Shown here: piece by piece, positions 5,529-28,646 of the stretch
Numbering within the stretch: the stretch's first letter is position 1
Layout of the letters: the number at the start of each line of letters is the position of its first letter
Assembly (NCBI GenBank): GCA_963675515.1
Contig: OY776328.1
Coordinates: 1,320,001 to 1,352,000 of the forward strand
Source of the DNA: Coprobacillaceae bacterium
GTDB lineage: Bacteria > Bacillota_I > Bacilli_A > Erysipelotrichales > Coprobacillaceae
Reading direction: 5' to 3'
DNA: 32,000 bases
The notes under the pieces: model-generated
Seen by the model: the letters and a program-made list of their open reading frames with translations, nothing else
What the model was told of the DNA's origin: nothing
The model's database searches: none
Program-made: the position numbers and the translations under genes

Positions 5529-6632
5529 TCATCTGATGCGGATCCAGTATTTGGTTTGTTTTTTGTCCAGATAAGACCTGTCATTGACGTTTGCGGCCTT
5601 GACGATGTCCTGGTAATCGCTGCCATCATCATTGATTGCAATCATTGATGAGCTGGAGTTGCTGTCATTGGTGTTGATGTACTGGTAATATTTCCCGTCG
5701 ATGCATACAATGGTTGTTGAGACCTTGTCGGTGTCGCTTGAGTTGTACGATGCTGCAAAAAAGACATTGTTTTTGTCCGGGGTGACTATGGGAACCCAAT
5801 AGAAGCTGGTTGAATACCCTACCTTAGCCATTTCCTCAGTTGTGGACTGAACATAGCCGTTCTGGCTTAAAAGGTAGTCCTGGTAGGCGTTGGTCAACTT
5901 TTTTGAACTGTCCTTGTCATAATTATCAACCAACTGGTACTTGATTGAATTGAATTCGCTGGCCAGTTTGGAGGTATCAATCCAGTTGTCTTGAGCAGTT
6001 GTTCCGCCACTGGTCTGGGAATTTGAGCTGTTCTGGTTAGTGCTTGGGTCCTGGGCGTCCGAGTTGTTTTCACCAGTGCCGGTTGTGTTTGAATTGTCGG
6101 TATCGCTGCTTGTATTGTCGTTTGAGTCGTCTGTGTCGGTATTGTCTGTAGTGCCGGGAGTCTGACTTTCATTATCCACGAGCGTCCAGACGTTGTCATC
6201 TTTAATCATGATGATATTTTCACCAGGAGTCACTAATGCATCTATGGCTGTTGTGCCATTGTACAGGCCAAAAAGATAACTGTTGGCTGGAATGTCGATA
6301 GAATCGCTTGCAACAGCGTTGGGGAAGTAGGCAAGATCATTGAGTATCAGATTGTCCATATCCAGGTTCTTGTTGACCTGATCGACAATCTGGCTTACCA
6401 CGTCGGGGTTGGCCTGATATAGTTGTGCCAAAGAAAGTCCGGTGGAAATTCGATACTTGTCCTGTTCGATCAATGCCGCGTTATAGACGCTTCTGGTAGC
6501 GATTGAATACTGGTATTCATTGGCATCGTCGATGTAGCTCACAACGGCCGGAACAGCGATCGCGGCTAGGATCGAAGTTATGGCAATCGTGGTGATGATT
6601 TCAATTAAAGTGAATCCCTTGTCGTTTTTCAT
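5529..6632 (-). CDS. Prepilin-type (type IV pilin / pseudopilin-like) protein with large C-terminal domain and S/T/N/D-rich linker
   Basis: Class III signal MKNDKG|FTLIEIITTIAITSILAAIAVPAVV (Gly-Phe cleavage/methylation site, Glu at +5). AAAGGAG RBS. Low-complexity stretch TDNTDTDDSNDNTSSDTDNSNTTGTGENNSDAQDPSTNQNSSNSQTSGG. Confidence 0.85.
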   Translation of the reverse strand: MKNDKGFTLIEIITTIAITSILAAIAVPAVVSYIDDANEYQYSIATRSVYNAALIEQDKYRISTGLSLAQLYQANPDVVSQIVDQVNKNLDMDNLILNDLAYFPNAVASDSIDIPANSYLFGLYNGTTAIDALVTPGENIIMIKDDNVWTLVDNESQTPGTTDNTDTDDSNDNTSSDTDNSNTTGTGENNSDAQDPSTNQNSSNSQTSGGTTAQDNWIDTSKLASEFNSIKYQLVDNYDKDSSKKLTNAYQDYLLSQNGYVQSTTEEMAKVGYSTSFYWVPIVTPDKNNVFFAASYNSSDTDKVSTTIVCIDGKYYQYINTNDSNSSSSMIAINDDGSDYQDIVKAANVNDRSYLDKKQTKYWIRIR

Positions 6633-6858
6633 TGATTGCTCCTTTAGGGTGTTTGATGTCTTTTATTTTACATTTTATTAGTTCCGAGTGCAAGAGAAAT
6701 GCTTGTATATCTTGGATTAATGGTATCTTTTTGGAATGATTTGCAGTCCATGTTGTTTGGCTTTGCAGTGGATAAGGTATATAATGAATACAGGAAAAGT
6801 CTGTGGCGGATGCTCATTGCCGTTCGAATGACAAGACAAATCAAGAGCTAAGACGTAA

Positions 6859-7207
6859 AAACAGTTAATTGAGGAAAAGGCAGCGATTGAAAAAGTATTC
6901 AACTACAGCACAACCGATGAAAAGACGGTGGAAAAAATTATCATTGATGACAATGTCAACAATATCCACGTCGTATCAACCGCGGCGACGGTTTGATCGA
7001 AGATCACTCCAATTCAAACGTCTGTATGAATGTAATCCGGGGAATATAAAGCATCACCCTGGATGACCGGGAACTCATATATATCAAAAAGGAACTCTTT
7101 TGAAGATTTCCTGCAATACCAAGGTGCAAGTGCACAATGAAAGTGACCGGACATTAAAGCTGATAGTCGTCAAGGCTTTGGCAGGCCAGAACTATCAAAA
7201 AGACTGA
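6859..7207 (+). pseudogene. Disrupted cupin-domain protein gene (two frameshifts plus one in-frame TAA, no obvious start codon)
   Basis: Three frames splice into one cupin-like protein. Frame 1: IEEKAAIEKVFNYSTTDEKTVEKIIIDDNVNNIHVV. Frame 3 from about 6975: INRGDGLIEDHSNSNVCMNVIRGI*SITLDDRELIYIKKELF (TAA at 7047-7049). Frame 2 from 7100: LKISCNTKVQVHNESDRTLKLIVVKALAGQNYQKD*. Confidence 0.7.
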
Positions 7208-7316
7208 CACGTTAAAATAATGACTTCAATGTATTAGATGCTTTACAGGCTATCTCGAAGTTTCATTTTAAGCAACTATGATGTGATCTATAAGAGGTCA
7301 CCGAGGAGGTGAGATT

Positions 7317-7754
7317 ATGGAAGACAGGAAAATCACGGTTTTGTTCATATGTGGAGCCAATTCATTCCGTTCGCAAGTGGCGGTAACGCTGCTAAATGGT
7401 AAATACGGAGATCGTTTCATCGGGGAGAGTGCGGGATACAATAACAAACCGATCAACCTTATGGCCATCAAGGCAATGGCCCAATATGGCTACGATATCG
7501 CAAACAACCCGTCGAACCGGATCATCGATATCTTCAATCAGGGGCGGGTCTATGACTATGTGATCACGGTGTGCAACGAAAAAGAAGAGAATGACTGTCC
7601 GGTGTTTCCGGGTTCTTCTTTCAAGTTGCACTGGCGCGAATTCCCCAATCCTGAAAATTACGAGGGTGACGAAACCCAAAAGTTCGGTCAGGCCAAGTAC
7701 CTGATTGAAGCCATGGAAAAAAAGATCGATGCCTTTGTGGAAACGGTGGAATAA
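7317..7754 (+). CDS. Arsenate reductase (thioredoxin-coupled ArsC) / low-molecular-weight phosphotyrosine phosphatase family protein
   Basis: GAGGAGGTGA RBS. CX5R(S) P-loop FICGANSFRS. Two downstream Cys in VITVCNEKEENDCPVFPG, as in Gram-positive ArsC. No arsR or arsB nearby, so the substrate is uncertain. Confidence 0.8.
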   Translation: MEDRKITVLFICGANSFRSQVAVTLLNGKYGDRFIGESAGYNNKPINLMAIKAMAQYGYDIANNPSNRIIDIFNQGRVYDYVITVCNEKEENDCPVFPGSSFKLHWREFPNPENYEGDETQKFGQAKYLIEAMEKKIDAFVETVE

Positions 7755-7767
7755 ACAGTAAAACAAA

Positions 7768-8094
7768 ATGTCATTATCGGATATTGGTTTAGGAATGTGG
7801 CAGGTTGCGAATACACTGTTGAGTGAAAATACAATGGCCAGTGCATCTTTGAGAGTGCGGGATATAAAGTCGCTCCAGCCAATCGGTTATGAAAACATCG
7901 CGGAATGCAAAAAAAGCTAAGAGTTGGCCTGGCCGGTTTTTCCTCGGTCCGTTTGTCAGGTTTTGCTGGCCGATATAGCAATCCCTGAAAATTGCCAGGG
8001 CGATGATGACGAAAAACTCTTTCAGGCTCAAGCACTGGTCGAATCAATGGCAAAATGGATCGACGCTTTTAAAACAGTGAGACAAATCAAGTGA
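7768..8094 (+). pseudogene. Degraded tandem paralog of the ArsC/LMW-PTP-like gene
   Basis: Pieces align to the intact copy: WQVANTLL vs SQVAVTLL (frame 1); KYNGQCIFESAGYKVAPANRL vs KYGDRFIGESAGYNNKPINLM (frame 3); WPVFPRS...PENCQGDDDEKLFQAQALVESMAKWIDAF vs CPVFPGS...PENYEGDETQKFGQAKYLIEAMEKKIDAF (frame 1). The P-loop Cys and Arg are lost, there is an in-frame TAA at 7918-7920, and the middle is deleted. Confidence 0.6.
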
Positions 8095-8104
8095 ATTCCG
8101 TTTT

Positions 8105-8130
8105 AGCCGCTCCTTATGGGGCGGTTTTTT
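8105..8130 (+). terminator. Rho-independent terminator
   Basis: GCCGCTCC-TTAT-GGGGCGG followed by TTTTTT. Confidence 0.65.
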
Positions 8131-8230
8131 AATGTTTCATTTGATCTTTTTACGATAATTACTATCAAGCTGGCCATTCAATACTGCCGATTGGGCATGG
8201 ATTACTTTTTCCAATTGGCCTGAAACCCGG

Positions 8231-8355
8231 GTTAATGACAATTGTCAACTGGTGTTAATGACAAAAGTTATCATATATTAAGCACAATTATCATTAAATA
8301 ATATAGTCTATTAATCTTTAATGATAACTTATCATAAAACCAACTAATTTATCAT
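8231..8355 (+). promoter_or_regulatory. Candidate operator array upstream of the ula-like operon
   Basis: GTTAATGACAA occurs twice (8231 and 8254). TTATCAT occurs at 8268, 8288, 8329 and 8349, with an inverted copy at 8321 that forms the palindrome ATGATAAcTTATCAT (8321-8335). Spacing is about 20-21 bp or multiples of it. Confidence 0.45.
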
Positions 8356-8364
8356 TTGTAAGCG

Positions 8365-8393
8365 TTGAACATTCATAAAATCTGGAGTATGAT
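8365..8393 (+). promoter_or_regulatory. Candidate sigma-A promoter of the ula-like operon
   Basis: TTGAAC (8365-8370), 17 nt spacer, TATGAT (8388-8393), about 70 nt upstream of ulaG. Confidence 0.5.
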
Positions 8394-8464
8394 TGATATG
8401 TAAAAGATAGATTAGTTGCAACGATCTAAAAATTCGAAACTAAAACAGGAGAAAGATAAACATT

Positions 8465-9529
8465 ATGGGTAAAGTTCAAAATATCACAAGAGAATCATGG
8501 ATCTTAAGTACGTTTCCGGAATGGGGAAGCTGGTTGAATGAGGAAATCGACGAAGAAGTAGTCAAATCAAACACCATCGCGATGTGGTGGTTGGGATGTG
8601 TGGGGCTTTGGTTGAAATCACCTGAAGGCTGCAACATCTCGGTTGACTTGTGGGCTGGAAGCGGCAAGCAGACAAAGAAAAACAAGCTTATGGCGGCCGG
8701 GCATCAGATGGCCAACATGTGCGGTGGCCGCAAGCTTCAACCGAACCTGAGAAATTCGGTATCGGTAATCGATCCTTTCAAGATCACCCAGCTCGATGCG
8801 GTGCTGGCAACTCATTATCATCATGATCATATGGATCCAAACCTTTGCGCGGCGGTCCTGCAAAACCTTGATGAAAACATCCCATTCATCGGTCCTAAAT
8901 ATGCGGTTCGCGACTGGATCTCTTGGGGGGTCCCTGAAGATCGTTGCCAGATCGTCAAGCCTGGTGATGTGATCAAGATCAAGGACATCGAAATCGTTGT
9001 TCTCGAATCGTTCGATAGGACATGTCTGGTTACAACCGATGGGGTACAGGATATCCGCGGCACTTGTCCTGACGACATGGATGAAAAAGCGGTCAACTTC
9101 CTGTTCAAGACACCTGGAGGCAACATCTACCACTCAGGCGATAGCCACTATTCGATCTACTATGCAAAACATGGAAAAGACCACAAAATCGACGTGGCAT
9201 TCGGTTCATACGGGGAAAACCCGGTCGGTCTCCAAGACAAGATGACTTCAGTTGACATCCTGAGAATGGCTGAAGCGCTCAAATGTGAAGTAGTTGTACC
9301 AATCCATTGGGATATCTGGACGAACATGACCCCAGACCTCTATGAAATCGAGCTGCTCTACAATTTCAAAAAACCACGCAACAAATACAAGTTCAAACCG
9401 TTTTTCTGGCAAGTCGGTGGCAAATATGTCTATCCAACTGACAAGGAAATCACTCATTTCCATTTCGATCGCGGTTTCGATGACTGCTTCGATGAGGAAC
9501 CGAACGTTCCATTCACTTCAATATTATAG
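8465..9529 (+). CDS. ulaG: L-ascorbate-6-phosphate lactonase (metallo-beta-lactamase fold)
   Basis: The N-terminus [22 protein letters not shown] and LQPNLR...[14 protein letters not shown] closely match my memory of E. coli UlaG. AGGAGAAAG RBS. Confidence 0.95.
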
Positions 9530-9538
9530 GGGAATATT

Positions 9539-9994
9539 ATGTTAAAAGAATTTGTCGAATCAAACCATTATAAATTCATTGAAAAGGCCGACAGCTGGCA
9601 GGATGCGATAAGACTCAGCTGCCAGGCATTGGAAGCCGATGGAACAATCGACGAGCGCTATGCGCAGTCTATAATCGATTGTGTAAACGAATATGGGCCA
9701 TACATCGTCATCATCCCGGATGTGGCGATGCCACATTCCACCCAGGGAGCTCTTGGCGTGACAAAAAGCGCCATCTCCTTCATGAAGGTGGAACAGCCGG
9801 TAGCCTTCGACGAGAACGACAGGGAAAAAGACGCGGTGTTGTTCTTCACATTGGCGGCGCTTGATCCGGACCAACATCTGGAAAATATGCAAAAACTGGT
9901 GGAACTGTTATCGAATGATGATGTGGTCGAAGCCTTGAAAAAGGCGAAAAGCCCGGAAGATTTATTGGAAATCCAAGCTAAATACATAGACTAA
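9539..9994 (+). CDS. ulaC: PTS EIIA component, ascorbate (L-Asc) family
   Basis: 151-aa PTS EIIA type-2 pattern with the phosphorylatable His in DVAMPHS. It sits in a ula context. Confidence 0.9.
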   Translation: MLKEFVESNHYKFIEKADSWQDAIRLSCQALEADGTIDERYAQSIIDCVNEYGPYIVIIPDVAMPHSTQGALGVTKSAISFMKVEQPVAFDENDREKDAVLFFTLAALDPDQHLENMQKLVELLSNDDVVEALKKAKSPEDLLEIQAKYID

Positions 9995-10013
9995 TACTAG
10001 GGAGAAAATTGAA

Positions 10014-11492
10014 ATGGAAATGTTTTTAACGATTTGGACATTCTTTGTCAACAACGTATTGACCAAGCCGCAATACTTTGTCGGTTTGATGGTTTTGATC
10101 GGTTACATGCTGCTTAGACACAAATGGTATGACACATTGGCTGGGGTCATCAAGGCAGTTGTCGGATTCATGATCTTGCAGGTCGGTTCGGGAGGATTGG
10201 TTACCAACTTCCGTCCGGTACTGGTAGGTTTGAAAGACAAGTTCCAGCTTGATGCGATGGTCATCGACCCATACTTCGGGCAAAATGCCGTCGATGCCGG
10301 TGTTGGGGAAGTCTTCGGCCGGACTTTCGGGGACGTAATGTTCCTGTTGCTTATCGCCTTTATCGTGAATATCCTGGTTGTCCGTTTTTCAAGAATAACC
10401 AAGATGCGCGCGCTCTTCACTACCGGACACGTCCAAGTGCAACAGGCGGCAACAGCTTTCTGGTTGATTCTGTTTGCCTTACCTTTTCTTAACAACACGA
10501 TGCTTCTTGTCGTGATGGCGATCGTTTTGGGTCTTTATTGGGCAGTCGGGGCAAACCTGACAGTTGAGCCAACCCAGGATCTTACTGAAGGGGCTGGTTT
10601 CTGTATTGCCCATCAACAGATGTTTGGTATCTGGGCTGTTGCCAAGATTGCCGATAAAATGGGCCGGAAATCCGGCAAAGTCCGCCGGATGGAAGACATC
10701 GAATTACCAGGTTTCATGTCTATCTTCAATGAAAACTTGGTATCTACCGCTTTATTGATGACCATCTTCTTTGGTGCAATCCTGGTTATCTTAGGTCAGG
10801 ATTACCTGATTGGTGCCGGCTTCATGACTGAAGGTCAATCATTCCTGTTCTACATTCTTGATGTATGTTTGAAATTCTCGGTTTACCTGACTGTGCTGCA
10901 ATTGGGGGTACGTACGTTCGTTACCGAACTTACAGCTTCATTCCAAGGTATCGCTGACAAATTATTGCCAGGTGCTGTACCAGGTGTCGACTGTGCGGTT
11001 GCATACGGTTTCGGATCACCAAATGCGGTTCCTGTAGGATTCCTGGCTGGTGCTTTGGGACAATTCCTTGCCATCATCGGTCTGATCGTCTTGAAATCAC
11101 CGACTATCGTTATCGCGGGATTCGTTCCAGTATTCTTCGACAACGCAACTCTGGCAGTCTATGCCAACAACAAAGGCGGATTCAAAGCCGCAATCATCCT
11201 GCCATTCTTTGCCGGGATCATCCAGGTATTGGGTTCGGCGTTGATTGCAACATTCGTCGGAATGTCAGCTTATGGCGGTTATTTGGGAATGCTTGACTGG
11301 GCGACTATCTGGCCAGGTATCACTTTCGTATTGAAATATCTTGGTATGGCGGGTATCGCGATCATCATCATTGTGTTCGTGGCAATTCCGCAACTGCAAT
11401 ACCGTGCCAACAAGGAAGGTTACTTCAAGTGTACCGAAGATTATGATGAATATGCCCGTTTGAAAGCGGAGAAAGAAGCACAAAGAGGATAA
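10014..11492 (+). CDS. ulaA: PTS EIIC permease, ascorbate (UlaA/SgaT) family
   Basis: 492-aa polytopic protein between EIIA and the other ula genes. The N-terminus (F..NVL..P.....L..LIGY.L) is typical of UlaA/SgaT. Confidence 0.9.
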   Translation: MEMFLTIWTFFVNNVLTKPQYFVGLMVLIGYMLLRHKWYDTLAGVIKAVVGFMILQVGSGGLVTNFRPVLVGLKDKFQLDAMVIDPYFGQNAVDAGVGEVFGRTFGDVMFLLLIAFIVNILVVRFSRITKMRALFTTGHVQVQQAATAFWLILFALPFLNNTMLLVVMAIVLGLYWAVGANLTVEPTQDLTEGAGFCIAHQQMFGIWAVAKIADKMGRKSGKVRRMEDIELPGFMSIFNENLVSTALLMTIFFGAILVILGQDYLIGAGFMTEGQSFLFYILDVCLKFSVYLTVLQLGVRTFVTELTASFQGIADKLLPGAVPGVDCAVAYGFGSPNAVPVGFLAGALGQFLAIIGLIVLKSPTIVIAGFVPVFFDNATLAVYANNKGGFKAAIILPFFAGIIQVLGSALIATFVGMSAYGGYLGMLDWATIWPGITFVLKYLGMAGIAIIIIVFVAIPQLQYRANKEGYFKCTEDYDEYARLKAEKEAQRG

Positions 11493-11495
11493 CAA

Positions 11496-12149
11496 ATGAA
11501 ATTTTTCGTCGATACTGCCAACGTGGCAGACATAAAAAAAGCCAACGATATGGGAGTGATTTGTGGGGTGACCACAAATCCTTCCCTGATCGCCAAAGAG
11601 GGGCGCGACTTCAATGAAGTCATCAAGGAAATCACATCGATTGTCGATGGACCGATTTCCGGAGAAGTCAAAGCGACAACCGAAGATGCCCCTACCATGA
11701 TTCAAGAGGGTGAGGCAATCGCCGCCATCCATGAAAACATGGTCGTGAAGGTTCCAATGACGGTTGAGGGACTTAAAGCCTGCAAGACGTTAAGTCAAAA
11801 AGGGATCAAGGTCAACATGACCCTTATCTTCACCGCAAACCAGGCCTTGCTTGCGGCCAGAGCCGGAGCCACCTACGTATCGCCGTTTCTGGGACGTCTT
11901 GATGACATTTCCAATGACGGAATGGTCCTTATCCGCGACATTGTGACCATCTTCGATGTTCATGGAATCGAGGCCGAAATAATCGCCGCATCGGTGCGCC
12001 ACCCGATCCATGTGCTCGAATGTGCCAAAGCTGGAGCCCATATCGCGACCGTGCCATATGGCGTGATCGAACAAATGACAAAACACCCTTTAACTGATAT
12101 TGGAATTGAAAAATTCAAGAAAGACTATCTAGCAGTATTCAAAGACTAA
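11496..12149 (+). CDS. tal: Transaldolase (short, subfamily 3B type)
   Basis: [15 protein letters not shown]...GVTTNPSL. It carries the transaldolase-type Glu (ISGEVKA) and Phe ([11 protein letters not shown]) at the positions where FSA aldolases have Gln and Tyr. Confidence 0.9.
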
Positions 12150-12164
12150 AAGGAGAAAACTAAA

Positions 12165-12455
12165 ATGAAAATTATTGTATGTTGTGCTAATGGAGCAGGT
12201 TCAAGTCTGATGTTGAAAATGGCTACGCAAAAAGCGACCAAAGCATTGAATATCCCAGTGGAAAAATTGCACCACTGCCCGATCTCGGAAGCGAAAACAG
12301 CCGCTAGCGGTTATGATCTGGTTCTCACCAGCAATGCCTTTGTGGAAATGTTCGCACCGCTTAGAGAAAAAGGCGTTATGGTCATCGGACTTAAGAACGT
12401 CATGTCCGCCAAAGAAATCGAAGACAAACTTAAAGAAGCTGGTTTAGGCCGGTAA
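12165..12455 (+). CDS. ulaB: PTS EIIB component, ascorbate family
   Basis: 96 aa, with the active-site Cys in the N-terminal MKIIVCCANGAGSS loop. Confidence 0.85.
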   Translation: MKIIVCCANGAGSSLMLKMATQKATKALNIPVEKLHHCPISEAKTAASGYDLVLTSNAFVEMFAPLREKGVMVIGLKNVMSAKEIEDKLKEAGLGR

Positions 12456-12486
12456 AAAGAGGTCACAATTGCTAGGGGGTTAGCAT

Positions 12487-13266
12487 ATGAAAAACACAAA
12501 AGAATCAGTAAACAAACGCCGCGAGAACATCTACCGGATGATCGAGGAAAATGGCGACATCAAGGTCGAGGAACTCATGGAGCTCGTCGATGCTTCGCCG
12601 CTGACGATCAGGCGTGATCTGCAGTATCTAGAATCCAAGAACAAGATTGAACGCTATTATGGCGGGGTCAGGCTCAACGGGATGTCGCTGATTCAGGAAG
12701 TCACCGACGAGGATGCCATCCACAAACAACTTATCGGCCAAAAAGCTGCCGAGTATGTCGAGGACGGGGACACTATCTTCATCAACACCTCGTCAACGGC
12801 CCTTGCGATCATGCCTTATATCACCGCCAAGAGAGTTACAGTGGTAACTAATAACGGAAATGTGATCAATACCCCATATCGATCAGACGTCACCGTTATC
12901 CTGGTGGGAGGCGAGCTGCGCCATGTCAAAGGGACGATGGTGGGCGATTTCGCCCTGGACAACATCAGGAAGGTTGCCGCAAACAAGTGTTTTCTTGGAT
13001 GCAGCGGCTTTTCTAGCGACTATGGGATGACTACGGCCATCCTGAGCGAAGTTGTCTTGAACCAGGCCTTCGCCGCCCAGACTGAAGGGGCGGTCATCCT
13101 GATGGCAACAGGCGATAAGATCGGCAAGAAGTCCTCGTTTCTCTCGGAAAAAATCGAACGGTTCGACGTGGTTATCACTGACGAATTCGCTGACAAGAAT
13201 GAAATCGAGAAATTTCAGGAACAGAATCTGATAGTCGATTTGGTTTCACGAAAGGATAAAAAATGA
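12487..13266 (+). CDS. DeoR/GlpR-family transcriptional regulator (UlaR-like)
   Basis: N-terminal wHTH (IKVEELMELVDASPLTIRRDLQYLE) and a DeoR C-terminal sugar-phosphate sensor domain. It is embedded inside the operon. Confidence 0.9.
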   Translation: MKNTKESVNKRRENIYRMIEENGDIKVEELMELVDASPLTIRRDLQYLESKNKIERYYGGVRLNGMSLIQEVTDEDAIHKQLIGQKAAEYVEDGDTIFINTSSTALAIMPYITAKRVTVVTNNGNVINTPYRSDVTVILVGGELRHVKGTMVGDFALDNIRKVAANKCFLGCSGFSSDYGMTTAILSEVVLNQAFAAQTEGAVILMATGDKIGKKSSFLSEKIERFDVVITDEFADKNEIEKFQEQNLIVDLVSRKDKK

Positions 13267-14303
13267 AAGCTGTAAAATACAACAAATACGAACTTAACAA
13301 GTGCTATTCCATAGCGCCGTTGAAATACAATAATGAAGACTACATTTTAGTAGCCGCCGAAAAGCAGGATGAATGTCTGCTTTTTGATTTGGCTGGAAAT
13401 CTGGTCGACACCATCTGGGAAGGTCCCGGGGGAACGATGTCGATGGTCCAGATCCCTGGAAGCAACGGGGTTTTCCTGGCAACCCAGAAGTTCTATTCGC
13501 CCAACGATTCCAAACAGGCCAAGATTGTCGTGGTGTCTCCTAAAGGAAAGGGTTGGGATGTCAAAACCCTCGTCGAACTGCCTTTTGTCCACCGCTTCGA
13601 TATTCTCACTTACAACAACGCCAATTACCTGATTGCCTGCACCTTGAAATCGGATCATGAATTCAAGGACGACTGGAACCATCCCGGGAAGATCCTGGTA
13701 GCCAAACTGCCGGATGATCTTGGCGGATATGATGAAACAAGCCAGCTTGAACTGAGCGTCATCAAGAGCGGTCTGCTCAAGAATCACGGGTATTCGAAGA
13801 TTGCCAGCCAATATGGCCAGGTGGCCCTGGTTGGAGCCAATGAGGGCATCTTCAAGATAATCCCGCCTTACATGGATGACGAGGAGTGGAACATCATTCC
13901 GCTTTACAACCAGCCCGTTTCGGACATGGTAATGGGTGATCTCGACGGTGATGGCAAAGATGAAATCGTTATCGCTACACCATTCCATGGTGATGATGTC
14001 AAGGTCCTCAAACTGATTGATGGGAACTATCAGGAAGTCTATCAGGTTCCGTTCCCGATGGAATTCACCCACTCATTGTGGGCGGGCGAAATCTATGGCA
14101 AGTTGATGGCGATCATCGGCCATCGCCAGGGTGAACGCAATATCGTAAAAATATCCTATGAAAACGATCAATACCAGACTGAAATTCTCGATGAAAATGT
14201 CGGAAGTGCCAATATCTACCTTTATGAAGTTGCCGGCGAAATGAGAATGGTTTCCACAAACAGGGAAATCGACGAGATCGGCTTCTATCGGTTCGAACGA
14301 TGA
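13263..14303 (+). CDS. Uncharacterised protein, predicted beta-propeller with one FG-GAP/Ca-binding-like loop
   Basis: ATGA start/stop overlaps at both ends (13263-13266 and 14300-14303). About 7 repeats of hydrophobic beta-strand blocks and a DLDGDGKDEIVIATPF motif. No signal peptide or TM segment. I recognise no family. Confidence 0.85.
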   Translation: MKAVKYNKYELNKCYSIAPLKYNNEDYILVAAEKQDECLLFDLAGNLVDTIWEGPGGTMSMVQIPGSNGVFLATQKFYSPNDSKQAKIVVVSPKGKGWDVKTLVELPFVHRFDILTYNNANYLIACTLKSDHEFKDDWNHPGKILVAKLPDDLGGYDETSQLELSVIKSGLLKNHGYSKIASQYGQVALVGANEGIFKIIPPYMDDEEWNIIPLYNQPVSDMVMGDLDGDGKDEIVIATPFHGDDVKVLKLIDGNYQEVYQVPFPMEFTHSLWAGEIYGKLMAIIGHRQGERNIVKISYENDQYQTEILDENVGSANIYLYEVAGEMRMVSTNREIDEIGFYRFER

Positions 14304-15166
14304 GAAACGACAAACAATATGCCCTGGGAGTTTATGAAAAGGCACTTCCCAATGAACTCTCGATTGTTGAAAAACTGGAAGCGGCAAAAATAGCTGGATA
14401 TGATTTTATGGAACTGTCGGTCGACGAGACTGATGAGAAGCTGGATCGTCTTGAATGGACACCAATCCAGCGCAAGACCATAAAGGATGCGATCCAAAAG
14501 ATCGGTGTGCCCATCGAGACCATGTGTCTTAGCGGCCATCGCAAATATCCGTTGGGATCCAATGATCCCAAGATCGTAGCCCGTTCGCTTGAAATAATGG
14601 AAAAGGCCATCGATCTGGCAAGTGACCTTGGCATCAAAATCATCCAGCTGGCGGGCTACGATGTCTACTACGAAGAGTCAAGCGAGGAAACGAAAGAACG
14701 GTTTGGCAACAATCTTAAAATTTGCGTCGACATGGCGGCCAAACGGGGTGTCATCCTGGGCTTCGAGACGATGGAGACCGAGTTCATGAACACCGTAGCC
14801 AAGGCGATGGAATATGTGAACATGGTTGATTCGCCATATCTTCATGTCTATCCCGACTGCGGCAATCTAAAAAACGCTTCAGTGACATACAAGACCGATG
14901 TCTACGATGATATCAGATCCGGCAAAGGTCACCTGGTGGCAATGCATCTAAAAGAAACCGTACCCGGAGTATTCCGCGAAGTTCCTTATGGCAGTGGCCA
15001 TATCGATTTTGAGGCCATGATTGATGTGGCCTGGGAAATGGGAGTCCGACGGTTTGTAAGCGAGTTCTGGTACGTCGACAGTCTCGACTATCAAGGCGAC
15101 CTCAATGAGGTGCGACAAATGTTCGGAGCATTGCTTGACAATAAAACGGAGGAAACTTTATGTTAG
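14300..15166 (+). CDS. ulaE: L-ribulose-5-phosphate 3-epimerase (L-xylulose-5-P 3-epimerase), TIM-barrel
   Basis: LGVYEKALP...[12 protein letters not shown]...RLEW...[13 protein letters not shown]...[11 protein letters not shown] is the UlaE/SgbU pattern. Confidence 0.9.
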
Positions 15167-15849
15167 AAGAATTGAAGAAAATAGTATATGAAGCCAACAT
15201 GGAGCTTCCAAGATATAATCTTGTCACCTTTACCTGGGGCAATGTCAGCGCCATCGACCGGGACAAGAACCTGATCGTCATCAAGCCCAGCGGGGTCGAT
15301 TACGACAAGCTGAACGTGGATGATATGGTGGTGGTCGACCTTGATGGCAAGGTGGTCGAGGGTAGATACAACCCAAGTTCGGATACCCTGACCCATATCG
15401 AACTGTATAAGGCATTTGACAATATCGGTGGCGTGGTCCACACCCATTCGCCATGGGCGACATCATGGGCTCAGGCGGGACGCGATATCCCTTGTTATGG
15501 GACCACCCATGCCGACTACCTGTATGGCGAAGTGCCATGCGTGCGCAACCTTTCCAATGATGAGATCGATGAAGGTTATGAAATGAACACCGGGAAGATC
15601 ATCGTGGCGGAATTCGCCAACCGCGACTGCGAAGCGATGCCGGCGGTCATCTGCAAGAATCATGGCCCTTTCACCTGGGGCAAGGATGCCATGGATGCGG
15701 TCCACAATGCCGTGGTTCTTGAAGAAGTTGCCAAAATGGCATGCCAAACGGAAATGATCAACAGTCATGTTCAAAAAGCGCCGCAAGTGCTCCAGGACAA
15801 GCACTATTTCCGCAAACATGGCGCAAACGCCTATTATGGACAGAAGTGA
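15160..15849 (+). CDS. ulaF: L-ribulose-5-phosphate 4-epimerase (class II aldolase fold)
   Basis: [30 protein letters not shown]...IKPSGVDYD...VVHTHS is the AraD/UlaF pattern. It overlaps the ulaE stop by 7 nt. Confidence 0.9.
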
Positions 15850-15859
15850 GGAGAATTGA

Positions 15860-16684
15860 ATGAACAATCATGATTTGAAAATCGCAGCCAACCAGATCCG
15901 CCAGTCGATCGTCCAGATGGTCCACTGTGCGAGTTCCGGACATCCCGGGGGATCGCTTTCGGCTGCCGACATACTGACTTATCTGTATTTTGTGGAGATG
16001 AATATCGACCCGAAGAACCCCAAGATGGAAGAGCGTGACCGGTTCGTCCTTTCCAAAGGGCACGTGACCCCGGCCTACTACTCTACTCTGGCCCAGCGCG
16101 GTTATTTCGATATCGCCGAGCTGGAAACATTCCGCAAGGTGGGCAGCCGCCTGCAAGGTCACCCGGCGATGCAATATATCGCGGGTATCGACATGTCTTC
16201 GGGTTCGCTGGGCCAAGGTCTCTCGACTGCGGTGGGAATGGCCAAAGCCCTGAAAATGGATGGCAAGCCCAACCGGGTCTACGCCCTTTGCGGGGACGGG
16301 GAACTTCAGGAAGGTCAGATCTGGGAAGCGTCAATGTTTGCCGGTTCGAACCTGCTTGACAACCTGACGGTAATCGTCGACAACAACAATCTCCAGATCG
16401 ACGGGACAATCGAGGAGGTCAACTCGCCTTACCCGATCGACAAGAAATTCGAAGCCTTCAATTTCCACGTGATCGTTATCGACGGTCACAACTTCGATGA
16501 AATCGCCGCGGCCTTCAAGGAAGCGCGCGAAACCAAGTGCCGGCCAACCGCGATCATCGCCAAGACAATCAAAGGCAAAGGCGTGTCGTTCATGGAAGAC
16601 AATCCGGCCTGGCATGGGACTGCGCCAAATGCGGAGCAATGTCAGCAGGCCCTGGCAGATCTCAAGAAAGTCGAGGTGGAGTAA
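15860..16684 (+). CDS. Transketolase, N-terminal (TPP-binding) subunit of a split enzyme
   Basis: GHPGGSLS, SKGH, GSLGQGLS and GDGELQEGQIWEA motifs. Confidence 0.95.
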   Translation: MNNHDLKIAANQIRQSIVQMVHCASSGHPGGSLSAADILTYLYFVEMNIDPKNPKMEERDRFVLSKGHVTPAYYSTLAQRGYFDIAELETFRKVGSRLQGHPAMQYIAGIDMSSGSLGQGLSTAVGMAKALKMDGKPNRVYALCGDGELQEGQIWEASMFAGSNLLDNLTVIVDNNNLQIDGTIEEVNSPYPIDKKFEAFNFHVIVIDGHNFDEIAAAFKEARETKCRPTAIIAKTIKGKGVSFMEDNPAWHGTAPNAEQCQQALADLKKVEVE

Positions 16685-16686
16685 GT

Positions 16687-17619
16687 ATGGCAGACAAAAT
16701 TGCGACAAGAATATCGTATGGAGAGACCCTGGTCGAACTTGGCAAGATCCATGATGACCTGGTGGTCCTCGATGCCGATCTGGCAGCGGCAACCAAGACG
16801 GATATGTTCAAAAAAGCGTTCCCGGAACGTTTCATCGATGTGGGGATCGCCGAATGCAACCTGATGGGAATCGCCGCGGGAATGAGCACCTGCGGGAAGG
16901 TTCCTTTCTGTTCGACTTTCGCGATGTTCGCATCGGGGCGGGCCTTCGAGCAGGTCCGCAACACAATCGGATATCCCCGTCTCAACGTAAAAATCGGGGC
17001 GACCCATGCCGGAATCACTGTCGGTGAGGACGGGGCATCGCACCAATGCAACGAAGATTTGGCTTTGATGAGCACGATTCCAGGCATGACGGTCATTGTC
17101 CCAAGCGACGATATCGAAGCTAAAGCGGCGGTCAAAGCGGCCTACGAAACCTATGGTCCGATGTACCTGAGGTTCGGTCGGGCCCCGGTGGACATCATCA
17201 ACGATTTCGAGGGCTATAAGTTCGAAATCGGCAAAGGAGTCAAGCTAAAAGAAGGCAAGGATATCACTATCATCGCAACCGGTATCTGTGTTGGCAATTC
17301 CCTGGAAGCGGCCAAGATGCTTGAATCCGACGGTTTGAGCGTTGAAGTGATCAACATCCATACGATCAAGCCGCTGGACACCGATATCATCATCGAATCG
17401 GCCAAAAAGACCAACCGGGTCTTCACCGTTGAGGAACATTCGGTTATCAACGGACTGGGATCGCAGGTGGCAAGTGCCCTGGGGGAAAATTACCCGGTCA
17501 AGGTAACAAAGATTGGCATGTACGATGTCTTCGGGCAGTCGGGACCGGCCAATGAACTTTTGGTAAAATACCAGCTTGATCCAGCAGGCATCTATAACCA
17601 GATCAAAGAAAAATTGTAA
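16687..17619 (+). CDS. Transketolase, C-terminal (pyrimidine-binding) subunit
   Basis: GAGGTGGAG RBS, then ATG 16687 (MADKIATRISYGETL). The ORF-track start at 16537 overlaps the previous gene and is rejected. It has the FIDVGIAECNLMGIAAG motif. Confidence 0.95.
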   Translation: MADKIATRISYGETLVELGKIHDDLVVLDADLAAATKTDMFKKAFPERFIDVGIAECNLMGIAAGMSTCGKVPFCSTFAMFASGRAFEQVRNTIGYPRLNVKIGATHAGITVGEDGASHQCNEDLALMSTIPGMTVIVPSDDIEAKAAVKAAYETYGPMYLRFGRAPVDIINDFEGYKFEIGKGVKLKEGKDITIIATGICVGNSLEAAKMLESDGLSVEVINIHTIKPLDTDIIIESAKKTNRVFTVEEHSVINGLGSQVASALGENYPVKVTKIGMYDVFGQSGPANELLVKYQLDPAGIYNQIKEKL

Positions 17620-17887: not shown

Positions 17888-20800
17888 ATGTTTATCCTGA
17901 AGAAGAGAAAAAGGTTTTTATTCACCTTATTCATGACGTTTACACTACTTATGAGCATCATGAATACAGGTGTCATGGTAAATGCGGACACCGGTGAGAA
18001 CAAGACGGATGTCCTGGATACTGAGGTATCCTTGTCCCAGGATGGGACAGAATTGACCGGGAGTGATGTCATCGACGCCACCAAGGATATAGTGGTCAAG
18101 GTCGATTTCGCCATCCCGGTGGTCGGAGATGAGCCGACGCCTGCCATTGTGGTCAATCAGGGTGATTATGCCCTGTTCGATTTCGGATCGGACTTTTCTC
18201 TTGTCAATGAGGGCCTTTTCGACCTGACTTACGGCGGGGTAAAGGTCGGAGAAGTCAACCTGGTCAACAATGCGACAACCAACCATGTCGAAGCGCAGGT
18301 AAGTTTCAACGGTGACGCTCAAGTCTACGACGGGACCTTGAACACGGTCCTGGCGGGATTCAGCGCGACCTTGCGGTATGACGGCAATGGTGCCGGTCTG
18401 GATGATGCCAACTACAACGTGACTGTATTGAACAAGACGTTCACGGTCAATGTCCCGGCAGCCACCAAGACGTACAATCTGACTAAATCGGGTGTTGTGG
18501 ACCTTGATAACAAGGTCATCAACTGGACGATCAATGCCAGCGTCGAACAGATGGGAGGGTACATTTCGCTGGCCGGCTATTCGATTCAAGATGACCTCAC
18601 CAACGTCGGTGAGCTGGTTGATAGTTCCTTCAAGGTAAACAACGTGGCGGTAGCCAACTCGGTCGATGGCAGCGGGGTTTTGAATTATGCCTTCACATCA
18701 GCTGACGGAGGGCAGGCGGCAATCACCTTCCAGACGCGCATCAGTGACAGTGAATATTACTCGCAAACTACCCACACCAAAAACAACAGTGTGACCATGT
18801 CTGACCCGGCAAGCACAATCGTCAAATCAGCGAGCGCCTCGGTAAGCTTCAGGCCGCAATGGATAACCAAATCAGGAACATCCAGCGATGCCAATGTGGC
18901 TGTCTACAACCCGACCGACCGCACGGTGACCTGGACGATTGTCGCCAATGACAATGCCGTCAACCTCCACAATGTGGTGATCAAAGATGTCTTGAGCGGA
19001 GGACTTACTTTCAATTCGGCTACCTGGGCGAAATGGGACGATGGTTCTTCCACCTGGGTCGACACGACAGCCATCACGCCTGAAAGCAACAGCGAATATG
19101 CCCTTGGCGATATTTCCAGCAAGATCCTGCTGACAATCGTAGCGAACGTTCCCAATCCGACCGGTCTGCAGGTCGTGACCGGGACAACCAACTATTCCAA
19201 CACGGCTACAATCTACTGGACCGGCAATGAAGGGGGCATCGCTTCTTCTCCAGTAGGAGTGAGTGTGGGATACAACGCCATCACCAAAAGCGGGGTGGCC
19301 AACACAAGTGAAGGGACGATAACCTGGAGTGTCAATGTCAATGCCAAGTCCCAGGCCATTCCCGATTTGAAAGTGTATGACCTGCTTATATATGGCAGCT
19401 CTAACGTGAATTTGAACCAGGTTACCGGCCTGCCAGCAGGGATCGCTACAAGCGATCTGACCCAGCGGACAAACCAGAAATACATCGAGGGATCACTGAC
19501 CAACTCGGCCATAAGCGTTGTTGTCCATCCTTTGTATATCGGTGGGACCCAAGTGGGGGAACTGCTTGAATTTGGCGGCCTGTCTACAGTTTCGACCAAT
19601 TCCTTCAGCTTCAAGACCCTTGTCACCAATCCGGATATCTACGCCGGGAACCGTTCGGTCAATGTCTACAATACCGCCAGCCTTTTTAGCGGCAACACCA
19701 GACTGAATGCAACCACCGGAAGAGTCACTTACAACGGCAGTGTCCTGGCAAAAAGGCTGATCAATTTCAATTACCAGACCAATCTTACCCAAGGGTTAAG
19801 TCACGTCACTTCCAACGGAGCTCTGGGATTCAACTATCTCGACAAGACGGTGGTCTACTATCTTGATGTCAACCGCAATTCCATGGATCTGACGAACATG
19901 GCAAATGCCAACAATTCGCTGCTAGGAGATATCAAGGTAAGCGATGTTCTCCCACAGGGATGGAGCTTTGTCGAACTGGTTTCAGGTCAGATGTTCCAGC
20001 TCTATGAAGTTGATGGGAGCAACAATTACACCCTGGTAAGTGACTTGTCGTTTCTAACCAGTGATTTCACGAGCCAATCGGGACAGGCCGATTTCACTTT
20101 CAGCCAGCTTGACAAGCATTACGTCATCCTGGTCAAGGCGCAAGCAAGCGAAGATGCCTTGAAGGACTATTTCGACGGTTCCAAGACGACAACCCTTACA
20201 AACAACATCACGTTGACAGCGGCCAATCACACTTTCAATCCCACAGTCACTGCATCACAAAATGTCCAGATCGTAAGTTCGGTGCTGGCCAAGGATTACA
20301 GCCTGGCAGCAGCCGGTGAACTTGACTGGACCATCGATTACAAGACTTACAACCTTAATCTTGCCGGAATCAAAATCGAGGATACCTTGCCTTATGGTCT
20401 GGAGCTAAAAACCGACAGCACCGGGGCCCTGGTCATCGATGGCAATATCCGGGCCTACAAGCTAAATCTCAACGCCGATGGTTCATATTCGCTTTTAGAC
20501 CAGCTGACCCTGGTGGAGGGCGACAATGTGTTCTATGACAGCGCGACCAGAACGCTGACTTTCATGATTGAGGATCCGACCAGCTCTTATCGTTTCATGT
20601 ATAAGACGGATATCACCGGTGAACCCGGAACGATTTCCAACAGCGTCCGGCTCTACAGCGACAGCGATCTTAGTGTCGATACGCAAAAAAGCTATGTGAT
20701 CACCAGACAGGACGAGTATGCGAGTTTCCAGAAAAGCGGATGGATCGAAGTGACCAAAGTCAACGATGACAATGCTCCGCTTCAAAACGTCGAATTTACG

Positions 20801-23266: not shown

Positions 23267-23373
23267 GGATTTGTTCCAAACGGAAGCTACTGACTCATAA
23301 CGCAAACGAAAGCGACTGGTGTTGCTTTTGAAAGCTTTGTGTGTTATTCTTTTTTTAGAAATGGGTGAAACAT

Positions 23374-24126
23374 ATGAACAAAAGACAAGCTAAGATATTG
23401 GAAATACTGACTGAATACAAGAAAATCGAGGTGTCTAAACTTTCGCAGTTGCTCGAGGTGTCCCAGGTGACGATCCGCAAGGACCTAGCGCAGCTCGAAA
23501 ACAGCGGGATGCTTGTAAGGGAGCATGGCTATGCCACGCTTAACGACAGTGACGACATCAACAACCGCCTGGCTTATCATTACCAGACCAAACAAAAGAT
23601 CGCAACGATGGCGGCTGGATCGATCCAGAACGGTGAGACGGTCATGATCGAATCGGGGTCATGCTGCGCCCTGGTTGCTTTGGAAATCGCTAAGACAAAA
23701 AAGGATGTGACCATCATCACGAATTCGGCCTTCATCGCCGATTACATCAGAAAGACGGGCAACGTCAAGATCATCCTGCTGGGTGGCGAGTACCAGAGAG
23801 AGTCCCAGGTCATGGTCGGACCGATAACCCGCAAATGTGTCGAGAGTTTCTTTGTAAACAAATTCTTCATCGGAACCGACGGCTTCTCCATCAACTCGGG
23901 CTTCACCGGCAACAACCTCATGCGCGCTGAGACAGTCAAGGATATGGCCAGACAGGCCAAGGAGATAATCATCGTCAGTGATTCTTCCAAATTTGCCAAA
24001 ACCGGGGTGGTCAACCTGCTGCCTACCAGTGCCATTCACAAGGTTATCACCGACAGCAATGTGCCCAATGGGGATGAGGAGTATCTGATTTCGCAGAACG
24101 TTGCAGTCGAAAAAGTTGCGATATAA
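23374..24126 (+). CDS. DeoR-family transcriptional regulator (putative regulator of the glycyl-radical locus)
   Basis: wHTH EVSKLSQLLEVSQVTIRKDLAQLE plus a DeoR C-terminal domain. I prefer ATG 23374 (MNKRQ) to the GTG at 23365 in the ORF track. Confidence 0.9.
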   Translation: MNKRQAKILEILTEYKKIEVSKLSQLLEVSQVTIRKDLAQLENSGMLVREHGYATLNDSDDINNRLAYHYQTKQKIATMAAGSIQNGETVMIESGSCCALVALEIAKTKKDVTIITNSAFIADYIRKTGNVKIILLGGEYQRESQVMVGPITRKCVESFFVNKFFIGTDGFSINSGFTGNNLMRAETVKDMARQAKEIIIVSDSSKFAKTGVVNLLPTSAIHKVITDSNVPNGDEEYLISQNVAVEKVAI

Positions 24127-24234
24127 GGTTGTCATTCCAATCAATAATTATCTACTAAACCATACGAACACTCCAGCTCCAGACAGGACGGTGTGTTTTT
24201 TTGTGCCTTTGAATAGGCGCTGACACCGCAGTTG

Positions 24235-24343
24235 AGTTTCGAATGAAATATAATTTTCTTATTTATGAAATTACATTGACAATTTATCAAGCTGTGCTAA
24301 TATTTTGGTATGTAATGAAATTTGATAAAGTTTCGAATGAAAT
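24235..24343 (+). promoter_or_regulatory. GRE promoter flanked by 15-bp direct repeats (candidate operators)
   Basis: TTGACA (24276-24281), 16 nt spacer, TGcTAATAT (-10 at 24298-24303). AGTTTCGAATGAAAT occurs at 24235-24249 and again at 24329-24343, 94 bp apart. ATGAAAT occurs five times between 24242 and 24358. Confidence 0.5.
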
Positions 24344-24356
24344 CAAGGAGAATGAA

Positions 24357-26768: not shown

Positions 26769-26781
26769 AGGAGAGAAGAAA

Positions 26782-27459: not shown

Positions 27460-27463
27460 CATT

Positions 27464-27495
27464 AGCCTCCTGCAATCTTGCGGGAGGCTTTCTTA
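27464..27495. terminator. Bidirectional terminator between convergent fsa copy 1 and the activase
   Basis: 10-bp stem AGCCTCCTGC / GCGGGAGGCT (one G-U pair), loop AATCTT, T-rich tail. Confidence 0.7.
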
Positions 27496-27524
27496 TGCAA
27501 CAAAAAAGACCAGCCGGGCCGGTC

Positions 27525-28421: not shown

Positions 28422-28581
28422 AATTGTTCATCCTCCTTATAGAAATATGATATCATTTAAAGATTCGATTGTAAATAATTTGCTTTCGTTCGAAACTGAA
28501 TTTCAAATTATGAAATTGTGAAATAATGCCGGTCTGATGATGCTTTTAGTTGTCAGCGTTTCAGTTTGGGACAAGTAAGGG

Positions 28582-28611
28582 TTGCCATGTGTTTGTTTGT
28601 CGGAGTATAAT
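28582..28611 (+). promoter_or_regulatory. Candidate sigma-A promoter for fsa copy 2
   Basis: TTGCCA (28582-28587), 18 nt spacer, TATAAT (28606-28611). Confidence 0.5.
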
Positions 28612-28646
28612 GGTTACATGAATTAAAAATTGAAAAGGGGAACATT

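Follow-up and report, generated by a model that had tools for sequence, protein, structure and literature searches.

Genetic organization of the ascorbate operon

The window analyzed here, a 32-kb (32,000 nucleotides) stretch of DNA from a Coprobacillaceae bacterium (contig OY776328.1, positions 1,320,001 to 1,352,000 of the forward strand), carries an L-ascorbate utilization (ula) operon in which a gene for a predicted beta-propeller protein stands immediately upstream of ulaE. Searches against Pfam and NCBIfam delimit an operon of 11 genes (8465-17619), tightly packed on one strand with intergenic gaps of at most 31 nt. The gene order is UlaG, the phosphotransferase system (PTS) components EIIA and EIIC, fructose-6-phosphate aldolase (FSA), EIIB, a DeoR-family regulator, the propeller, UlaE, UlaF and a transketolase in two halves (Table 1). 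An initial annotation, made from the sequence alone, had described an ascorbate operon with UlaG, EIIA/B/C, UlaE and UlaF that lacks ulaD. The Pfam and NCBIfam matches bear out the first part of that description and, as to the second, tblastn searches with E. coli UlaD and SgbH as queries gave zero matches in the 32-kb window at E ≤ 10.

The propeller open reading frame (ORF) was also correctly delimited, and its two ATGA overlaps can be read directly in the raw sequence. The TGA stop codon of the DeoR gene overlaps the propeller ATG (aaaaATGAaag, 13263-13266), and the propeller stop codon overlaps the ulaE ATG (cgATGAgaa, 14300-14303). A Shine-Dalgarno-like AAAGGA is located 7-12 nt 5′ of the propeller start codon. 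As the annotation had proposed, the protein appears to be cytoplasmic: no signal-peptide-like sequence was found at its N-terminus.

The same 11-gene operon is present in another locus (L170), with a propeller orthologue that is 87% identical. When both orthologues are compared, the ratio of nonsynonymous to synonymous substitution rates (dN/dS) of the propeller gene is 0.078, against values of 0.010-0.097 for the neighboring genes. The propeller gene is under purifying selection.

Several enzymes of the operon exceed the cut-offs of their models, among them UlaE, which in addition to the model given in Table 1 scores above the cut-off for NF009688 (330 versus 317 bits) and TIGR00542 (309 versus 272 bits). 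EIIC falls just under the cut-off of the PTS ascorbate IIC model (378.9 versus 380 bits), and the regulator reaches only 81.5 bits with the UlaR equivalog, the cut-off of which is 244. The FSA/TalC gene, which is found in only 7 of the 134 propeller loci described below, represents an accessory link to the pentose-phosphate pathway.

Table 1. Features of the window, with their positions and the matches or motifs by which they were assigned.
Feature	Position	Strand	Remarks
ORF with type IV prepilin-like N-terminus	5529-6632	-	367 aa
Terminator-like hairpin and T-run	8105-8126	+	9-pair stem with 6 G-C pairs, then TTTTAATGTT; consensus match only
Promoter-like site	8365-8393	+	TTGAAC-17-TATGAT, 9/12 matches, about 70 nt 5′ of ulaG; weak, consensus only
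ulaG, L-ascorbate-6-phosphate lactonase	8465-9529	+	NF008688 equivalog, 610 bits versus cut-off 306; 62.7% identity to E. coli UlaG
PTS EIIA (ascorbate/galactitol type)	9539-9994	+	PF00359, E 5.6e-31
PTS EIIC (EIIC-GAT, UlaA-like)	10014-11492	+	PF03611, E 1e-99
Fructose-6-phosphate aldolase/TalC-type transaldolase-family enzyme	11496-12149	+	TIGR00875, 307.7 bits versus 245.95
PTS EIIB	12165-12455	+	PF02302, E 2.3e-15
DeoR-family regulator	12487-13266	+	HTH_DeoR and DeoRC domains
Propeller ORF	13263-14303	+	346 aa, ATG start; predicted cytoplasmic seven-bladed beta-propeller of the FG-GAP/VCBS type
DxDxDGxxE loop, D226-E234	13938-13964	+	A-B loop of blade 5; conservation D226 97%, D228 87%, D230 93%, G231 95%, E234 95%
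ulaE, L-xylulose-5-phosphate/L-ribulose-5-phosphate 3-epimerase	14300-15166	+	NF009689, 355 bits versus 200
ulaF, L-ribulose-5-phosphate 4-epimerase	15160-15849	+	NF006047, 390 bits versus 257; 60% identity to E. coli UlaF
Transketolase, N-terminal half	15860-16684	+	PF00456, E 1e-60
Transketolase, C-terminal half	16687-17619	+	Start MADKIATR; L170 orthologue has PF02779 and PF02780
Large repetitive protein	17888-23155		1,755 aa
DeoR regulator of second sugar-type cluster	23365-24126		Cluster spans 23365-29330
Glycyl-radical enzyme	24243-26768		841 aa; PFL-like and Gly_radical domains
FSA/transaldolase-family protein	about 26782-27459		
Radical-SAM activase	27525-28421	-	
FSA/transaldolase-family protein	28647-29330		

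Genomic context of the propeller genes

The best 80 genome loci, one per species, were analyzed with flanks of up to 10 kb each around the propeller gene, using the proteins of the window as tblastn queries. UlaE was present in 70 of them, UlaG in 61, UlaF in 53 and PTS components in 48-55; with E. coli UlaD as query, not one of the 80 gave a match, even at E ≤ 10. Pooling all the DNA fetched gave 134 propeller loci, 66 of which are flanked by at least 6 kb on both sides. At least one of UlaG, UlaE and UlaF is encoded in 64 of these 66 well-flanked loci (UlaG in 61, UlaE in 58, UlaF in 48, all three in 44). UlaD/SgbH is absent from all 134 propeller loci, and UlaD and SgbH queries run across the 2.43 Mb of fetched DNA matched a single locus, L091, which has no propeller. 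The possibility that a divergent UlaD had been overlooked by BLAST was considered and rejected, as relaxing the threshold to E ≤ 10 and adding SgbH as an extra query gave L091 only.

In 90 of the 134 loci the propeller gene directly adjoins UlaE, and in 49 UlaF follows; the commonest order is UlaE-propeller-UlaF. When the unassigned ORFs in the ula clusters of 81 loci were grouped by sequence, no other common same-strand ORF emerged as an alternative hidden decarboxylase. The most recurrent ones encode a HAD-like hydrolase (15 loci), HPr (12 loci) and EI (7 loci).

It might be argued that these genomes encode a canonical decarboxylase of the UlaD, SgbH or HxlA type elsewhere, and that the propeller is an accessory protein that, for instance, improves flux or processes a by-product or another substrate. 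Paralogues of the OMP-decarboxylase family are common in bacteria, and the stretch inspected per genome extended no more than about 10 kb from the gene in either direction. Canonical ula and sgb operons, in contrast, place UlaD/SgbH next to UlaE/SgbU, an arrangement that none of the 134 propeller loci shows, and the propeller gene is conserved and coupled to the same degree as the core genes. In a weak additional check, the best 120 relatives of a UlaD included none from a contig with the length of the source contig (2,881,239 bp). We consider such an accessory role improbable.

Some loci retain the propeller together with only a part of the pathway. Loci L083 and L087 combine it with the full ula set (PTS, UlaG, UlaE and UlaF), again in the absence of UlaD. 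In L088 the propeller is accompanied by PTS genes, UlaG, HPr and EI, with neither UlaE nor UlaF adjacent. L086 encodes, together with the propeller, homologues of SgbU (58% identity to E. coli SgbU) and SgbE (56%), a DeoR regulator, an FGGY kinase and an ABC transporter, and lacks both UlaG and SgbH; it is arranged like lyxK-sgbH-sgbU-sgbE of E. coli, the propeller standing where SgbH would be. One genome keeps the propeller with the upstream half of the pathway and another keeps it with the downstream half, which fits a protein that performs the intervening step.

Outside the PTS-linked operons, L085 of Pelosinus propionicus (5615-15447) groups the propeller with a UlaG-like protein, Aldolase_II, AP_endonuc_2, transketolase, major facilitator superfamily (MFS) transporters and a 2-hydroxyacid dehydrogenase; neither a PTS nor a kinase is visible there. 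A further variant cluster, L012 (2377-11044), includes UlaG, the propeller and a URO-D-like protein, and contains neither UlaE nor UlaF. Related PTS clusters occur in L110 and L132 (10001-17414), which like L012 encode a UlaG homologue, EIIA, a Cof-type HAD protein, EIIB, a URO-D-like protein and a DeoR regulator. Their EIIC is divergent (35% identity to EIIC of the window), and a possible creatininase-family protein can be discerned from its N-terminal sequence, as judged by eye. The propeller is found in L012; in L110 and L132 there is none within 10 kb.

Genomic context of UlaG and UlaD

The converse analysis was a metagenome scan seeded with UlaG alone, which yielded 80 loci. A propeller was present in 46 and UlaD in one (L091); no locus had both and 33 had neither. 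The 33 loci with neither gene were evaluated as possible counter-examples and rejected as such, most of them being cut at contig edges and the long ones that were opened belonging to a different context of UlaG paralogues. The four that include UlaE are truncated by a contig end at the expected position of the propeller, and most of the others end near UlaG at a contig edge. In the long loci that were opened, the neighbors of the UlaG paralogue are either an FGGY kinase, a HAD-like protein and an ABC transporter, or URO-D-like and Cof-type HAD proteins.

The first of these contexts is exemplified by L158 (7617-11104) and is also found in L105, L107, L162, L165 and L168, with UlaG homologues that are 62-66% identical to UlaG of the window. 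Their neighbors include the FGGY kinase (L105, L107, L158 and L168), a HAD-like protein of 270-285 aa (L158 and L165), and glycosidase-like and ABC transporter genes. PTS genes, UlaD, UlaE and the propeller are all missing within about 10 kb in loci of this type; in L051, the same FGGY kinase lies between UlaG and the propeller. This context may correspond to a non-PTS route or to another substrate for the UlaG paralogue.

UlaG of the window is 62.7% identical to E. coli UlaG, and it is 56-76% identical (median 64.6%) to the UlaG proteins of propeller loci. The identities being in the same range, both types of operon use the same lactonase.

With respect to UlaD, the copy in L091 is of the Anaerolineae type, and a related complete operon was found in L171 (6531-13491), with the order phosphotriesterase-family hydrolase, EIIC, EIIB, EIIA, UlaD, UlaE, EIIC, UlaF. 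When eight diverse propeller sequences were used as queries against the four UlaD/SgbH-type loci (E. coli ula, E. coli sgb, L091 and L171), no propeller was detected. In L171, the position of UlaG is occupied by the phosphotriesterase-family (PF02126) protein, possibly a second non-homologous replacement, in this case of the lactonase.

The initial annotation had suggested that the propeller could be a non-orthologous replacement of UlaD, and had asked whether its homologues co-occur with ulaG, ulaE and ulaF in operons without ulaD. They do so in the loci analyzed, and both the context (134 of 134 propeller loci without UlaD and, from the side of UlaG, 46 loci with the propeller, one with UlaD and none with both) and the predicted structure support the replacement.

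Size and distribution of the propeller family

The protein had also been described as an orphan. This is right as far as its annotation is concerned: named copies are labeled "hypothetical protein" (e.g., WP_130434004.1 and WP_090939177.1), "VCBS repeat protein", "Repeat domain-containing protein" or "FG-GAP repeat protein". It is not right with respect to relatives, which are numerous. A word-indexed search returned at least 1,800 homologues at E ≤ 0.001, the best 120 of which are full length, and an exhaustive search of representatives at 50% identity returned 739 clusters with E ≤ 0.001, of which 214 reach E ≤ 1e-30. In a scan of one genome per species, relatives were present in 398 GTDB species, mainly Lachnospiraceae with some Oscillospiraceae, Butyricicoccus, Criibacterium, Bulleidia and Epulopiscium; remoter members come from Pelosinus, Caproiciproducens and Spirochaetota. 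No homologue was found in a plasmid collection. Full-text searches of the literature found no paper on this propeller family or on an ascorbate operon without UlaD.

One member of the family, P0194 (624 aa), is a fusion of a Cof-type HAD sugar-phosphate phosphatase (PF08282) to the propeller. Phosphatases of the HAD type also recur next to the propeller as separate genes: a HAD-like ORF of 230 aa is present in 15 of the 80 genome loci (e.g., L031, 5811-6503), and Cof-like ORFs are found in the variant clusters L012 (2786-3619) and L110 (12498-13238). Cof-like hydrolases have already been recorded in ula regulons (PMC3219644).

Fold, conserved residues and remote relatives

The sole Pfam family matching the window protein is FG-GAP (PF01839), at residues 223-243 (E 4e-5, 23.8 bits versus a gathering score of 22.1); the NCBIfam scan gave no match. 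The FG-GAP match spans the DLDGDGKDE loop, and a single blade carries such a loop, as the initial annotation had noticed. Its estimate of about seven beta-strand-rich repeats agrees with the AlphaFold2 model, built from an alignment of 37 sequences, which predicts 28 strands arranged as seven four-stranded blades and closed by the N-terminal strand (mean predicted local distance difference test score 94.1, predicted template modeling (TM) score 0.91).

A Foldseek search of the PDB with this model retrieved propellers only, with the EPTP domain of LGI1 (TM-score 0.71) among the top matches and CRTAC1 at 0.70. The best match to an enzyme was aldos-2-ulose dehydratase (AUDH; 4a7k, TM-score 0.73, E 1.9e-9). 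The Pfam family of the AUDH propeller, PF22301, matches 18 of 72 distant family members at E < 1 (best E 2.7e-5), a single one of which, P0363, exceeds the gathering score (31.9 versus 27 bits). Searching PDB sequences with two family profiles gave nothing significant; the best match of the family profile was again AUDH, at a non-significant E of 0.99, and an E-x-F-H-G motif and a DxDGDG loop are common to both. AUDH has been assigned to the VCBS/FG-GAP supercluster (PMC8023676). By profile matches and predicted structure, the window protein belongs to the FG-GAP/VCBS propeller superfamily and appears to be distantly related to the propeller of AUDH. It falls outside the UlaD/SgbH family (OMP-decarboxylase suprafamily), since it matches that family neither in sequence (PF00215 and NCBIfam) nor in fold. 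Both the predicted fold and the apparent distant homology suggest a metal-dependent enzyme that acts in keto-sugar chemistry.

Conservation was analyzed in 123 full-length, diverse members, down to 26% identity. Residues Y15, E33, H110, R111, D137, W138, N174, H175, H242, H270 and R288 are conserved in at least 94% of them, and G56, G57, D226, D230, E234 and Y342 in at least 90%. In the ula clade, K34, K129, H132 and R334 are invariant as well, and H287 almost so. DxDxDG-type motifs are located in loop AB of propeller blades (PMC8023676), and the blade register was set by placing the DxDxDG loop between strands A and B of blade 5. On that basis, the conserved His, Glu, Asp and Arg residues are predicted to lie at the starts of A strands (D-A loops) or in B-C loops, that is, on the top face around the central channel. 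This is the usual active-site face of propeller enzymes. The loop D226-E234 would be on the opposite face, where it is probably a structural site of the Ca2+/Mg2+ type.

These features bear on whether the protein is an enzyme at all. Most FG-GAP/VCBS and LGI1-EPTP-like propellers are ligand binders, and the frequent adjacency of UlaE would suit a lectin-like sugar-binding protein, a scaffold or a regulator that assists UlaE or the PTS. Such a role would not account for a top-face set of His, Glu, Asp and Arg residues that is active-site-like and nearly invariant across members 26-30% identical, nor for the fact that exactly one enzyme of the pathway is missing; moreover, L088 has the propeller without UlaE nearby. 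We regard a non-catalytic propeller as very improbable.

As many metal-dependent propeller enzymes are lactonases, and as the substrate of the operon is a lactone, we also evaluated a second lactonase resembling SMP30/gluconolactonase, 6-phosphogluconolactonase or PON, with an ascorbate-related lactone, for instance a derivative of dehydroascorbate or erythorbate, as substrate. The window protein matches none of the lactonase propeller families (SMP30/LRE and PF10282), and a single one of 72 members matches PF10282, at E 0.14. UlaG is already there in 61 of the 66 well-flanked loci, L086 keeps the propeller with SgbU and SgbE in the absence of any lactonase, and a second lactonase would leave the decarboxylation slot empty. 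Hardly any probability attaches to this reading.

Proposed function and mechanism

In the ula pathway the product of UlaG is a C6 keto-acid phosphate, whereas UlaE and UlaF act on C5 sugar phosphates (PMC3219644). One carbon must be removed between UlaG and UlaE, and the propeller is the only unassigned gene of the operon; because of this, and on the grounds of genomic context and predicted structure, the propeller is in our judgment probably a decarboxylase of 3-keto-L-gulonate-6-phosphate that is non-homologous to UlaD.

For the reaction, the metal and the roles of the residues, we infer the following scheme. L-Ascorbate would enter the cell through PTS EIIA/B/C as L-ascorbate-6-phosphate, the lactone of which would be opened by UlaG to give 3-keto-L-gulonate-6-phosphate. 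The propeller would take up this beta-keto acid at the top-face mouth of the central channel. A divalent metal bound by H110, H175, H242, H270, E33 and D137 would polarize the C3 carbonyl and stabilize the enediolate as C1 departs as CO2, while R111 and R288 (plus K34, K129 and R334 in the ula clade) would grip the 6-phosphate, the carboxylate or both. Protonation would then yield L-xylulose-5-phosphate, to be converted by UlaE and UlaF to D-xylulose-5-phosphate, which transketolase and FSA would pass into glycolysis. UlaD performs the same decarboxylation chemistry with Mg2+ on a different fold, and the scheme also resembles the metal-assisted enolization ascribed to the AUDH propeller.

The initial annotation had offered a modified substrate or pathway as an alternative for this operon. 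This is less likely, because by their scores UlaG, UlaE and UlaF are true orthologues of their E. coli counterparts. A related view is that the propeller catalyzes a different step on the UlaG product or on a related keto-sugar phosphate (enediol-keto tautomerization, isomerization or dehydration), decarboxylation being spontaneous, due to another protein or replaced by a route other than that of E. coli. The closest enzyme by fold and profile, AUDH, is indeed a dehydratase of 2-keto sugars. The steadiest partner of the propeller across the family is an AP_endonuc_2 TIM barrel, which accompanies it also in non-ula loci with GFO/IDH/MocA and URO-D-like proteins, and L012 combines UlaG, the propeller and a URO-D-like protein in the absence of UlaE and UlaF. 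Against this view, the window operon offers no other candidate for the conversion of C6 to C5, and the orthology of UlaG, UlaE and UlaF applies here as well. Ascorbate use by E. coli depends on UlaD or SgbH, which means that spontaneous decarboxylation does not suffice in that organism. We therefore rate a different step as unlikely.

Several points weigh against the decarboxylase assignment. We know of no beta-propeller decarboxylase. The UlaD side of the exclusivity test comprises four loci, from E. coli and of the Anaerolineae type. The searches for UlaD span the window and the loci, with up to about 10 kb on each side, and a paralogue (UlaD, SgbH or HxlA) may lie elsewhere. The window protein does not match PF22301 at E ≤ 10, and the metal site and the residue roles are derived from blade topology, not from coordinates. 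L085 appears ill-suited to a phosphorylated substrate, because of its MFS transporters and the lack of a visible kinase, unless further genes supply one. Some members of the family lie outside ula contexts, as in L084 (8020-11020) and L082 (1-3547), where neither UlaG nor UlaF is present; in both, the propeller gene and the AP_endonuc_2 gene upstream of it overlap and a URO-D-like protein is encoded alongside, to which L084 adds a GFO/IDH/MocA oxidoreductase and proteins of the BNR_2 and GHL10 types. These arrangements suggest that the distant clade of L084 and L082 serves a different keto-sugar pathway. As the contexts of L084, L082 and L012 differ from that of the ula operon, the family seems to do more than one job, and its chemistry would be broader than the decarboxylation of 3-keto-L-gulonate-6-phosphate. 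The thread common to the family would be the chemistry of keto sugars or sugar phosphates next to a xylose-isomerase-like TIM barrel, and the P0194 fusion points in the same direction.

Other features of the window

Upstream of ulaG, the terminator-like hairpin may end the preceding transcription unit. Just 3′ of the operon lies the gene for the large repetitive protein, which starts with a signal-peptide-like sequence, ends in a hydrophobic anchor and contains five or more tandem units of about 125 aa (…LT[LV]SKEV[TA]G…FEF[TS]I[YH][FL]K…EKDY…), and which resembles a large repetitive surface adhesin. The ORF with the prepilin-like N-terminus (GFTLIEI…) has a long, low-complexity middle rich in Ser, Thr, Asn and Asp. 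In the second sugar-type cluster, a DeoR regulator, a glycyl-radical enzyme and a radical-SAM activase are encoded together with two FSA/transaldolase-family proteins, which brings the FSA paralogues of the window to three when the copy in the ula operon is counted. In L170 (16305-19996), the corresponding genes for the glycyl-radical enzyme, DeoR and FSA were called as several short fragments, and the adjoining ula operon is intact; either decay of the cluster or frameshift errors of long-read sequencing may account for this.

Discussion

The operon of the window corresponds to the ula regulon in every respect tested except UlaD: what is new is an unrelated, probable enzyme family in a known slot of a known pathway. 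The E. coli ula regulon (ulaG, ulaR and ulaABCDEF), the yiaK-S (sgb) system and the window operon have PTS EIIA/B/C, UlaG, UlaE, UlaF and a DeoR-family regulator in common. Compared with E. coli ula, the window operon has the propeller instead of UlaD and adds FSA and a split transketolase, and its regulator, encoded within the operon, does not qualify as a UlaR equivalog. A survey of UlaG published in 2011 described ulaABCDEF "in all cases", the only uncharacterized gene being a duplicated one after ulaF in Catonella morbi (PMC3219644).

The 3-keto-L-gulonate-6-phosphate decarboxylases UlaD and SgbH share with the propeller the slot in the pathway and the neighbors (UlaE/SgbU, UlaF/SgbE, and UlaG with a PTS or an FGGY kinase), and the two distributions never overlap in the loci sampled. 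A divalent metal that stabilizes the enediolate would be expected in the propeller as well. In sequence and fold both proteins are unrelated: UlaD/SgbH is a (beta/alpha)8 barrel of about 216 aa, and the propeller an all-beta, seven-bladed protein of 346 aa.

The N-terminal domain of AUDH (4a7k, PF22301) and the propeller are both seven-bladed and of the FG-GAP/VCBS type. AUDH is a fungal three-domain enzyme of 900 aa that dehydrates 1,5-anhydro-D-fructose, whereas the propeller is a stand-alone bacterial protein encoded in a sugar-acid-phosphate operon; the sequence similarity between AUDH and the window protein is marginal. In the work of Claesson and colleagues in 2012, AUDH is said to act on keto sugars by metal-assisted (Zn) enolization. 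Integrin-alpha and PVL-type FG-GAP propellers, as well as the EPTP propeller of LGI1, have like the window protein seven blades and a DxDxDG metal loop in the A-B loop. They are, however, extracellular binders with several Ca loops, whereas the window propeller appears cytoplasmic and has one, and a conserved top-face set of His, Glu, Asp and Arg such as that of the propeller is not known in them.

A broader proposal is that these propellers constitute a new family and the first beta-propeller decarboxylase, independent of the OMP-decarboxylase fold. It would provide the usual vitamin C/keto-gulonate route in Lachnospiraceae, other gut Clostridia, some Negativicutes and Spirochaetes, its wider branches carrying out other metal-assisted keto-sugar enolate chemistry together with xylose-isomerase-like TIM-barrel partners. 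We hold the chances of this broader proposal to be about even.

Among the operons sampled by similarity to UlaG of the window, the propeller type predominates (46 versus one with UlaD), and many of the 398 species with relatives are gut Lachnospiraceae. If the propeller is indeed the decarboxylase, annotation tools that require UlaD would score complete pathways as incomplete, and a function would become available for the 739 clusters (50% identity, E ≤ 0.001) that are now "hypothetical" or "VCBS repeat". Decarboxylation would be added to the known chemistry of beta-propellers, and the anaerobic use of L-ascorbate would have a second, unrelated solution for its committing decarboxylation.

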